Source: a virus (taxonomy: Duplodnaviria > Heunggongvirae > Uroviricota > Caudoviricetes). From it: a DNA stretch of 48,944 bases. Location: IMG/VR virus record IMGVR_UViG_2718217715_000009. One strand, given 5' to 3'. A program made the position numbers. This document shows, piece after piece, positions 39,001-42,000 of the stretch. The number at the start of each line of letters is the position of its first letter. Position 1 is the stretch's first letter.

Positions 39001-42000
39001 ATAAACGTAGTTATTCACTGCGCCCAACTTCATCCCAAACTTTTCGGCAATTTCCCGTCGGGGTACACCACGCTGATGCAGTTGCCACGCCAGCTCAATA
39101 TCACGCTGTGAACATTTGGCTGACTGGTGATAATCACCCCGTAACATCATGCTGATACCCAGTTCCCGCGCTTTCGTCCTGACGGCTGACTCACTACGGC
39201 CAATCAGATAACCGATGCTTTCGACTCTCATCGTTCCCGCACACTGCCGGAGTATCAGGATTTCAGCCCAGCGCCACTTCTTCCAGCCACTCACCGCTGC
39301 TGCTCTCTGGTGGCGGTAATATCCCGGAGAATATCCCTGTGTTTGTTCAGTTCCCGTAGCGCAGCACAGACTCGCTCCCACTTCTGAACATTACTTTTCG
39401 CCCGGCGCAGCTCGCGGTTAGCCACATGCAGCGATGGTAGAATCAGGTCATCTGCTTTCGCTTCAGTGAACGATTGCTGCAACTTCACAATGTCCTCCAC
39501 CGCTTCTGTTTTAATTTCTTCCTGTGCAGCCGTTTCCTGGACTGGTAACGCAACACCAGCTGGCTGAGGAAGGGCTTTACCCTCCGTTTCAGCTACGGAT
39601 GCTGCTTTCGGCTCTGCCGGTAAATCAACGCCCGGTATGCAGTAACGAAATTTACCATCCTGATTCACGCGAATCAGACACCCTTTGCTGATTGCCATTG
39701 CCAGCGATGAATTCGCCCGGCGGGAGGTAATTCCGAACATCAATGCCAGTTCATCCGCCGTTTGTGGGCCATGTTGTTCAATCGCCTCTGTCAGCATTTG
39801 CGCCGTCACTTTCGGTACCGGTGACACCGGTTCACTTTCACCAGCCTGAGTCAGCCACCATATCGCCCCCTTGTTATCCGCTTCTCCACGGCGTTTCAGT
39901 TTCCACAGTTCGTTGACAGCCTCTTCACGACTAATTCCAAGGCGAGCTGCCACCACATGTGAAGAGGCTCTTTTCAGTGCTTTCAGTGCGTCAGATACGG
40001 TTTCCATTAAAATTTCCTCCGACAAAATCGTTTCTCAGATTCAAACAAAACCAGCCGCCTTCCGGCGCTCGTATTCCTGTTTCAGTAATTCAATTGGCGT
40101 TGGCCCTTGCGGGCACTTCGGCGATGCGAGTTGTCTCCGGATCGGGGGAATACTCATCCCGTTACCAACTTGCTTTGCCCATTTCGTCAGTTGCCGTTCT
40201 GCAAGTCGTTTTAACTCACCTTCCGTCATCTGCCGCTCAATCCCTCTGTCACGCATCTCGAGGCAAATGTGGTACAGCACCGGCTGTGGCCACGGGTATT
40301 TATCACTCCCGTCGTACCGCCAGGATTCATTCCTCCAGCGACGGTACTCCTCCATCACGGCATCCACCGTCAGGCCAAATGGATTTGCCCCGCTCTCCGA
40401 AATCAACGCCACAAACTCAGCCAGATCCGGAGGCCACGTTTCACCCGCCCGGCAGCGGTCCATGCACTGACGGCAGACCTGCCGGATTTGCTGTTCAGTC
40501 ATCGCGCCAATCTGAGCAATCCAGAGCTTCGACGGCGCAGCCCCGTTCTTCTGGGTCCAGCGGTTCGAATACACCTCCCCCATAAGTTCCCACAGCTTCC
40601 AGGCCGTTTCCGTTGCTGATAAATCCGTTTTCACGTTCCCACTGTTCACGTGCTGCCCGAATTTCCTGAACTGCCCGTGATGCGGTGCCACCTGGTGCTG
40701 CATGGCTTACCCCCTTGCTGACTGGTTTTACCTGTGCCCTGACGTGCTGCACGTGACGGGCAAATTTCTGCTCCCACTGAACCTGCGTGAAAACCTTCCC
40801 CTCCGCCATCCAGTAATCCCGGAATGCGGCAAGCTCAGCAGGTGTAAACTCAGGCTCAGGCTCAGGCTCAGGCAGAGCCATACCCCACAATGCAGCCCGC
40901 TGTCGAAAATCCAGCGACGGCCGCCAGACACCAGTCATCGGAAATTTCCCGATCGGTTCGCTCAGGCCATCCGGGTATTCAGGTTCTGCTGTCTGCAACG
41001 GCGCGCCATTCGACTCACTGGCTGGAGCACTCTCGCGCATGCGCGCGTTATGTGTGGGGTTTAATTCTTTATCTGTATCTGTATCTGTCGTGACTTGTCG
41101 TGACATATGCGTGACGCGTCGTGACTCATCGTGACAATCAGTGTTCTGCTCCCGCAGTCTTTCCCGCTCCCGCTGCGCTCTCTTGCGCTCTGCCGGGGAT
41201 TTTGCGGTTTGCGAAACATTACCGTTATCCTCCTTCATCACCTGGCGTTTTTCCCATCCGGAAATAAGATCGCCATCCAGAACTCGCCCCTGCATTGCAT
41301 GCAAAATTGAATCAATCACGTCTTCCGTCACATCAAGCGCACTTGCTAAATCTTCCGTCGTGACATCAATGTGACCACGTAGTGACTCGCCGTGACATTT
41401 CGTGACATTTCGTGACGCACTCACCAGAAGGTGGATATACACCGCCATCACTGTTGCGATTGGCTGTCCTGAGACCCTGGCAATGGTTCGCCATTTGGGA
41501 TCATTTGGCATGTCATGCCACAATCTGAGCCAGGCATTAGCCATACTCACCTCATCTGATACCGAACTTTACCCTCGAACATCCGGAAGAAATCCGGCAT
41601 GAATATTGTTGGTCAATGCACGACAACAGCATTACCAGGCTGACCCCCACTGTTAGTCAGGGTGCCCCAGGCGATCGCCGCTGCGACAAAATCATCCACA
41701 TCTTTCACCAGCCGATCCCTCCGTTCGACGATCTCACGGTAATATTCAGAGCTGTGACTGCGCATACGGGCCACCAGCAGAGGCGGCATTGCCTTTTCGA
41801 TCGCCGGTAACAGAGCCTGCATTTTTTCAACAGCATCAGGGGTGTCTTTATCCAGCCAACGGAAAATTTTCTGGGTATTACGAGCCAGGGCTTCCGGATG
41901 GCTGTCGTCGTACAGTTCCGGGAACGTCATCCCCAGTTCGAAATAAGTCCGGGCTATTTCAGCTGCAGGAACTTTCTCACCATCAGGATATGCCCAGGCA

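Follow-up and report, generated by a model that had tools for sequence, protein, structure and literature searches.

Why should a phage replication initiator gene carry two separate arrays of one short repeat within its own codons? The question is raised by the caudoviricete record IMGVR_UViG_2718217715_000009, a stretch of 48,944 nucleotides (nt; hereafter the window) for which Escherichia coli O157:H7 strain 9234 is a 100% identity match, and in which a preliminary description had marked two iteron arrays inside an 'O-like' replication gene as a candidate origin. As judged from the sequence, the region probably represents a bipartite iteron-type replication origin that a lambdoid prophage of the Rac immunity type carries within its initiator gene, with one array (A) as its core and the other (B) as an accessory. 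The gene and its arrays are placed as follows:

40495..41544, minus strand: replication initiator gene (open reading frame (ORF) 40495-41550; start at 41544 according to RefSeq)
41088..41136, minus strand: array A, five GTCACG(A) iterons spaced 10, 10, 11 and 10 base pairs (bp) on the gene strand, encoding CHDESRRVTHMSRQVT
41359..41417, minus strand: array B, six GTCAC(G) iterons spaced 10, 10, 10, 11 and 11 bp, encoding ASRNVTKCHGESLRGHIDVT

Both arrays lie inside the initiator ORF, in the same orientation and with a common core. Read on the plus strand, GTGAC starts at 41090, 41100, 41111, 41121 and 41131 in array A, where all five copies extend to CGTGAC, and at 41360, 41371, 41382, 41392, 41402 and 41412 in array B, where four of the six do so. 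The arrays are 270 bp apart from start to start, B lying 229 bp upstream of A in gene orientation and thus promoter-proximal. Tandem Repeats Finder detected repeats of period 10 at 41086-41135 and 41391-41416. The window has 40 copies of CGTGAC, compared with 20.6 ± 4.8 expected from dinucleotide-preserving shuffles (none of 100 reached 40), and nine of these copies fall in the two arrays. No other cluster of at least three GTGAC/GTCAC motifs with gaps of at most 23 bp was found elsewhere in the window, and the longest run at 9–12 bp spacing was at most three in 300 shuffles vs. the five and six observed. Five and six copies at ~10–11 bp spacing, forming the sole such clusters in the window and situated in the coding region of the replication initiator, bear out what had been described.

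The immediate surroundings of array A resemble those of the lambda origin, and comprise two further elements:

41058..41089: AT-rich block, (ACAGAT)3 AAAGAATTAAAC on the gene strand, a candidate DNA unwinding element, encoding TDTDTDKELN
41030..41059: GC-rich box with a perfect 12-nt palindrome CGCGCATGCGCG at 41034-41045, preceded on the gene strand by AAACCCCACACATAA

The order on the gene strand is array A, AT-rich block and GC-rich palindrome, at the junction of the protein's two domains. The (ATCTGT)3 repeat previously noticed beside array A is real, being recovered by Tandem Repeats Finder as a period-6 TCTGTA match (3.8 copies, 41066-41088). GC content drops to its regional minimum of 32.5% at 41060-41099 and amounts to 67.5% at 41000-41059; a hairpin is predicted at the GC-rich box, which would form the right-hand flank of the candidate origin. 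The GC profile revealed no AT-rich block beside array B. Since an AT-rich element adjoins array A alone, the two arrays are probably not equivalent, and the earlier proposal of both as a candidate origin is supported, with a correction: array A has the layout of lambda ori and array B is selected and covaries with it (see below), but only A adjoins an element that could be unwound. An arrangement as in Staphylococcus aureus pathogenicity islands, with AT-rich DNA between two sets of iterons, was considered and dropped, as the stretch from B to A has 42–70% GC and the AT-rich block lies outside it, beyond A. Inspection by eye for DnaA boxes gave no convincing TTATCCACA match near array B or in the GC box.

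A BLAST comparison with 5426 complete E. coli genomes, of which 1261 matched (658 over at least 80% of the gene), helped to delimit the parts of this locus. Hundreds of genomes match only the C-terminal 576–590 nt, homology ending at 41070-41085, i.e. adjoining array A. Initiators with such partial matches possess other N-domains and other repeats at the position of array A, e.g. TGTTCAAACA in L004 (a DUF1376-type gene; L numbers are our locus labels) and ACCCAAA in L139, and retain the AT-rich block and the box AAACCCCACACATAACGCGCG. This break in homology, together with the different repeats at the array A position, indicates that a given N-domain brings its own repeats with it, in the manner of lambda O. 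On the strength of this comparison, the gene is composed of one module with the N-domain and its repeats, and a second with the AT-rich block, the GC box and the DnaT-like C-domain. None of the initiators with other N-domains (L004, L139, L140) shows a second array: the repeats of L004 and L139 are confined to the linker, and in L140 no repeats were detected at all. The earlier remark that a two-array layout is less usual hence holds among related E. coli initiators.

Elements of the second module recur widely. In nearly all relatives, of any iteron class, array A is succeeded by a (GATAMA)n block, the copy number of which varies among close relatives. Just past the AT-rich block, a GC box of the pattern AAACCCCACACATAACGCGCG...GCGCG encodes NPTHNAR; seen in the window and in L002–L007, L012, L017, L047, L139 and L140, it accompanies the DnaT-like C-module in E. 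coli initiators with four different N-domains as well as in Serratia and Sphingomonas, and may serve the origin as a landmark for the loader or for unwinding. Separately, the plus strand at 41031-41069 bears a terminator-like hairpin (TCTCGCGCATGCGCGCGTTATGTGTGGGG) followed by TTTAATTCTT, a match by consensus only; it is antisense to the initiator and shares sequence with both the AT-rich block and the GC box.

The product of the initiator gene (351 amino acids, aa) comprises a ~100-aa winged-helix-like N-domain, a linker and a DnaT-like C-terminal domain. In a Pfam scan (E ≤ 0.01), DnaT (PF17948) was the sole match (aa 203–273, E 8.4e-16); neither the lambda O family Phage_rep_O (PF04492) nor the G38P families were matched by the initiator itself, and one relative (P0076) has a C-terminus of the G38P type PF09524. 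Among PHROGs, the protein matched 1408 'replication initiation protein' (E 3e-116), 10469 'DnaD-like helicase loader' (E 2.5e-8) and, weakly, 4880 'replisome organizer' (E 3e-4). RefSeq names it 'DnaT-like ssDNA-binding domain-containing protein' and NCBI lists relatives as 'phage replisome organizer'. With 87.7 bits, it remains under the 201-bit equivalog cut-off of the NCBIfam DnaT model; judged by these profiles, the initiator carries a DnaT-like domain, yet is not DnaT itself. The label 'O-like' is consequently apt by analogy, that is, by position, role and partner gene, and not by homology, given the missing Phage_rep_O match and the DnaT-like C-terminal part.

An AlphaFold2 model built with 67 sequences shows a confident N-domain with helices at residues 6–16, 18–27, 31–47, 65–72 and 76–86, followed by a short wing. 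The residues encoded by array B (46–64) form a low-confidence loop (block mean predicted local distance difference test score of 56), and those encoded by array A belong to a disordered inter-domain linker. With one peptide in a low-confidence loop and the other in a disordered region, the protein can tolerate a sequence dictated by its DNA. In the C-terminal half, a (CTCAGG)4.2 hexanucleotide repeat at 40849-40873 encodes PEPEPEPE; it is 12 bp (two units) longer here than in other O157:H7 and E. coli homologues, and these two extra units account for a gene of 1056 nt rather than 1044 nt.

Is array B then a conserved element in its own right? A search with the N-domain returned 1044 database clusters at E ≤ 0.001, and our comparison set consisted of 47 genome loci plus phage records from beta-, gamma- and alpha-proteobacteria. 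Over E. coli homologues of 88–100% identity, only three substitutions occur in 122 columns around array B, with flanking codons varying synonymously; array A has invariant cores and changeable spacers in the same set. Both arrays, with GTCAC cores, are present in Pseudomonas phage phi1, Aeromonas phage pAEv1818 and ~30 genomes of beta- and gamma-proteobacteria, the genera including Bordetella, Serratia, Rahnella, Aquitalea, Acidovorax, Gilvimarinus, Pseudomonas and others. In these loci, array B mostly comprises four copies at intervals of 10, 10 and 11 bp; array A begins ~219–247 bp after B (with few outliers) and has three to five copies, the range over all GTCAC-class relatives being three to six. 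Compared with this common form, the window has 21 additional bp in array B (KCHGESL; present in E. coli and E. albertii) and likewise 21 in array A (HMSRQVT; common to some other Enterobacterales), each insertion amounting to two iterons, or seven codons.

Codon usage allowed selection on the peptide to be separated from selection on the DNA. In 25 GTCAC-class loci (sequenced regions of 34–69% GC), codons were counted for the B peptide A-S-R/Q-x-V-T-R-G-H-x-x-V-T and set against background use in the same genes:

GCG in array B: 23 of 25 loci (background 24%)
TCA in array B: 24 of 25 loci (background 13%)
GTC in array B, two positions: 25 of 25 loci each (background 19%)
ACG in array B, two positions: 25 of 25 and 24 of 25 loci (background 22%)
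GGT in array B: 25 of 25 loci (background 22%)
CAC in array B: 24 of 24 loci (background 57%)

For the spacer arginine codon of array B, CGT, CGA, CGC and CGG are used freely. As the motif codons are nearly fixed across regions of 34–69% GC, selection on the peptide cannot explain array B, which, by the evidence of its synonymous sites, is under selection at the DNA level.

Close relatives convey the same picture. An IMG/VR scan yielded 80 of them (L059–L138; 93–99% identical, from E. coli) and no new motif classes. Six intact B cores were found in 78 of the 80, while array A has three to six copies in this set and changes length in steps of 10 or 21 bp. Array A thus appears to evolve by slippage of iteron units, with B constrained. 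Some A variants in this set differ by +10 or −10 bp, which should frameshift the initiator, and such loci would be defective prophages or artefacts of assembly; variants of −21 bp, which keep the frame, were also found.

The codon data also bear on the idea that array B has no function of its own and is either kept A-like by gene conversion or slippage, or a by-product of peptide selection. Some observations point that way: in L047, ~30 nt are near-identical in A and B, which suggests recent copying; array A slips in iteron units among close relatives, frameshifting steps of 10 bp included; and the remainder of the N-domain barely differs between motif classes. Peptide selection, however, cannot fix synonymous sites against local codon usage in 25 loci of such divergent GC content, and copying is difficult to reconcile with cores that are kept while the spacers of A and B differ, with a B array that always has an invariant in-frame Arg-Gly and is near-invariant where array A varies, and with a 162-bp stretch between the arrays that contains the motif in few loci only. 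We therefore regard an array B without function as very unlikely: its fixed synonymous sites, distinct spacers and stability argue that it is maintained by selection.

The motifs of the two arrays also change together across lineages. Three 5-mer cores, counted in fixed, protein-anchored windows, assigned both arrays to one and the same class in each of the 44 loci that possess B (31 GTCAC, 4 GTAAC and 9 GAACG). Among more distant subfamilies, the core GTAACG was found in Pantoea and Enterobacter, and GTAACGC in Marinobacter and Sphingomonas, where ~30 nt are near-identical between A and B. In the nine loci of the CGAACGC class, B encodes ASNATERGRTQ and A encodes QTQPNATER. The Arg-Gly pair of the B-encoded loop is invariant across all motif classes. 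In a neighbour-joining tree with the B loop masked (78 residues, rough), the GTAAC state appears at three separate places; for instance, the GTAAC pair L029 and L033 has as its sister L034, which is GTCAC in both arrays. The three motif classes possibly differ in specificity.

A single inverted partial iteron lies close to array B:

41325..41334, plus strand: inverted partial copy with GTCAC at 41327-41331, past array B by 33 bp in the direction of the gene

Within the codons for 'ALDVTE' it specifies DVT, and its position is occupied by GTGAC in most GTCAC-class loci and by GTTAC in L033 of the GTAAC class, which is no more than suggestive.

The B-encoded loop is the part of the N-domain that differs most between iteron classes, and it could help to read the iteron, in which case the site and part of its reading head would reside in the same nucleotides. 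We give this idea only a slim chance. It also draws on an observation from L029, L033 and L034 (Pantoea, Enterobacter and Erwinia), which have an extra iteron ~30 codons after B, in codons for R-(H/N)-V. This iteron falls in the putative recognition helix and reads CGTCACGTT (His) where the locus is of the GTCAC class and CGTAACGTT (Asn) where it is of the GTAAC class; one nucleotide change, the C-to-A step from GTCAC to GTAAC, thus alters both the site and the residue (His to Asn).

How the origin would operate can be outlined by combining the arrays with the protein's architecture. N-domain monomers would bind the 10–11-bp direct repeats of both arrays head to tail, on one face of the DNA. 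Array A and the AT-rich block would constitute the origin core, where bound initiator would melt the AT-rich block, and the DnaT-like C-domain, together with a lambda-P-like loader, would recruit the host DnaB helicase. Array B would provide further sites of the same kind in an accessory role, most likely united with A in one looped or wrapped nucleoprotein complex, with firing enhanced or timed as the result; it may also impede transcription through the initiator gene.

The surrounding genes were ordered by ORF, Pfam/PHROG and RefSeq. This is a minus-strand early-right operon from a lambdoid prophage whose immunity is of the Rac type, and the order along it is:

plus strand: racR, first in gene order, before the pR-like promoter
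42373..42402, minus strand: pR-like promoter, TTGACA-18-TAATAT (consensus scan only)
42022-42366, minus strand: YdaS/Cro-like gene
41613-42038, minus strand: YdaT/CII-like gene
40041..40502, minus strand: gene for a lambda-P-like helicase loader, which the initiator gene overlaps at its end

The pR-like promoter is thus located upstream of ydaS (cro-like), ydaT (cII-like), the initiator and the P-like gene, and a transcript from it would traverse array B first and array A second. The loader is annotated as such by RefSeq and matches Pfam Phage_lambda_P (PF06992, E 1.6e-16) and PHROG 109 'P-like helicase loader'; DUF1627 and further genes follow it in the operon. The immunity region at 42470-44278 is Rac-like, with racR and DUF1391 genes annotated by RefSeq and dicB further along; the RacR-like ORF at 42470-42946 had no Pfam or PHROG match at the thresholds used. 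An Rfam scan of 40000-42600 at E ≤ 1 detected no RNA element.

This gene order lends some weight to array B acting negatively, be it by handcuffing with A on the same or a sister molecule, by titrating the initiator, or by blocking RNA polymerase from pR and thereby mediating autoregulation. The second arrays of iteron plasmids (P1 incA and F incC) act in control. Array B has the same motif and orientation as A and no adjoining AT-rich element, stands downstream of the pR-like promoter and ahead of the P-like gene and the remainder of the initiator gene, is steadier than A among close relatives, and, as lineages without it exist, is dispensable. A prophage that replicates only after induction, however, less obviously needs copy-number control than a plasmid does, and nothing in the sequence separates positive from negative action: array B may enhance firing, as crr of satellite phage P4 does, restrain it, as P1 incA does, or also obstruct pR transcription. 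A negative role appears unlikely, though it is the alternative that we take most seriously.

Alternatively, the repeats might act in the regulation of transcription instead of replication and be the target of another factor, for example the YdaT/CII-like protein, a repressor or a protein of the host. The region is predicted, by promoter consensus, to be transcribed from pR. The arrays nevertheless follow the N-domain across very different gene contexts: E. coli and Pseudomonas phage phi1 have a lambda-P-like partner gene, Aeromonas phage pAEv1818 has a helicase gene in its place, and the C-termini of the initiators differ too; moreover, where the N-domain is swapped within near-identical E. 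coli modules, the repeats change. Binding by a factor other than the initiator is accordingly a highly improbable explanation.

Several points weigh against the bipartite origin proposed here. Full-text literature yielded no published binding or replication data for this initiator family. Profile and sequence searches of the N-domain against the PDB gave no match at E ≤ 1, and Foldseek returned only weak winged-helix matches (CRP, MepR and GntR; best E 0.09), so 'winged helix' denotes a fold-level impression and claims no membership. Iteron classes differ hardly at all in the N-domain beyond the B loop, which offers little basis for a difference in specificity, and the concerted change of the arrays could partly reflect sequence homogenisation or copying between them. 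Array B is also not indispensable in the family, as eight related loci do without it. Finally, the helical phase between A and B (modulo 10.5 bp; 23 distinct configurations) clustered weakly, with R = 0.40 and a nominal p = 0.03 uncorrected for relatedness. Helical phasing was dropped as evidence for looping because this clustering is too weak; the loose conservation of phase would argue against a rigid loop, but not against looping in supercoiled DNA.

Where array B is missing (eight loci), the linker has no more than an A array that is short or weak, or repeats of another kind. Two loci with no array B combine the same N-domain with a different downstream part (…YVYYVATTDGDVVRVGISRNPWARCKDL…), namely L052 (a Serratia metagenome-assembled genome) and L057 (Pantoea); here, CTACGTAG-type repeats replace array A. 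Plasmid replicons using the N-domain were also considered; the 11 PLSDB records found were mostly large E. coli plasmids or chromosome-sized and gave no insight into a replicon.

Our search of full-text literature also found no published description of this family's origin, which can be placed by comparison with better-known systems. Phage lambda has its iterons and AT-rich tract midway along gene O (PMC7466680), and O of Shiga toxin (Stx) phages has two extra iterons, six in all, which add 13 aa (PMC7466680). The locus in the window shares with these phages the iterons in mid-gene, at the junction of a DNA-binding N-domain and a loader-interacting C-domain, the AT-rich tract that follows, the P-type loader partner and a unit transcribed from pR. 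As in Stx phages, extra iterons lengthen the protein, here by 7 aa for two iterons. Unlike lambda O, the N-domain is non-homologous and the C-terminal part DnaT-like; the iterons are 10–11-bp direct units with a 6–7-bp core, whereas those of lambda are 19-bp palindromes in a single block; and a second array is found 229 bp upstream, where the codons are those of the predicted DNA-binding domain. The oriL of Bacillus phage SPP1, with AB boxes and an adjacent AT-rich unwinding element, is likewise contained in its initiator gene (PMC5737612), and the initiator G38P, a replisome organizer, also binds oriR, a discrete region distant from oriL (PMC5737612, PMC3485210). Common to both systems, on our reading, are an origin embedded in the initiator gene and one protein with a second, separate site; they differ in that oriR is distant and outside the gene, whereas both arrays of our locus are inside.

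On the plus strand of the window, far from the replication genes, two GTCACG copies occur 10 bp apart at 23801-23816 (CTGTCACGGCCAGTCACGTAC); they may be due to chance or be a minor distant initiator site by analogy to oriR. Minus-strand CGTGAC copies at 18954, 19116, 19278 and 19440 (region 18954-19445) are spaced exactly 162 bp, which indicates a tandem 162-bp (54-codon) repeat, probably in a structural gene.

A comparable repeat arrangement is that of satellite phage P4, whose ori and crr are two clusters of the same short repeat served by one initiator, crr being a cis-acting accessory. Two separate clusters of one short repeat are what P4 and our locus share; the P4 clusters lie kilobases apart and outside domain-coding sequence, and its alpha protein, a primase-helicase, is unrelated to the initiator studied here. 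In the plasmids P1 (incC/incA) and F (incB/incC), two arrays of ~19–22-bp iterons, the first serving the origin and the second control, flank the rep gene and are served by RepA/RepE-type initiators; they too have two arrays of the same motif, but at our locus both are inside the ORF. Winged-helix proteins of the OmpR/PhoB type are transcription factors that occupy tandem 10–11-bp direct repeats, usually two per site. A short core once per helical turn would suit head-to-tail winged-helix monomers in a similar manner, a likeness that implies no homology.

Iteron origins inside phage initiator genes are thus known already, as are second binding loci (SPP1 oriR, P4 crr and the P1 and F arrays). 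What is new, from the sequence comparison, is a second array 229 bp from the first, within codons of the initiator's own DNA-binding domain. By the same comparison, array B dictates the sequence of a protein loop, is kept across three proteobacterial classes and switches its motif together with the origin array. It exemplifies overlapping codes, as amino-acid sequence within a folded DNA-binding domain is set by a DNA-level array of sites. Should the loop indeed read the iteron, such self-referential coupling would channel the evolution of origin specificity. The module is common, with matches in 1261 of 5426 complete E. coli genomes, and occurs in prophages of Pseudomonas, Aeromonas, Bordetella, Serratia, Sphingomonas and others, and a comparative map is now available of its iteron core, three motif classes (GTCACG, GTAACG and CGAACGC), likely unwinding element and conserved right-hand box. 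This is relevant to the annotation of these genes, to the interpretation of apparent 'conserved peptide motifs', and to engineering or inactivating prophage replication in enterohaemorrhagic E. coli.

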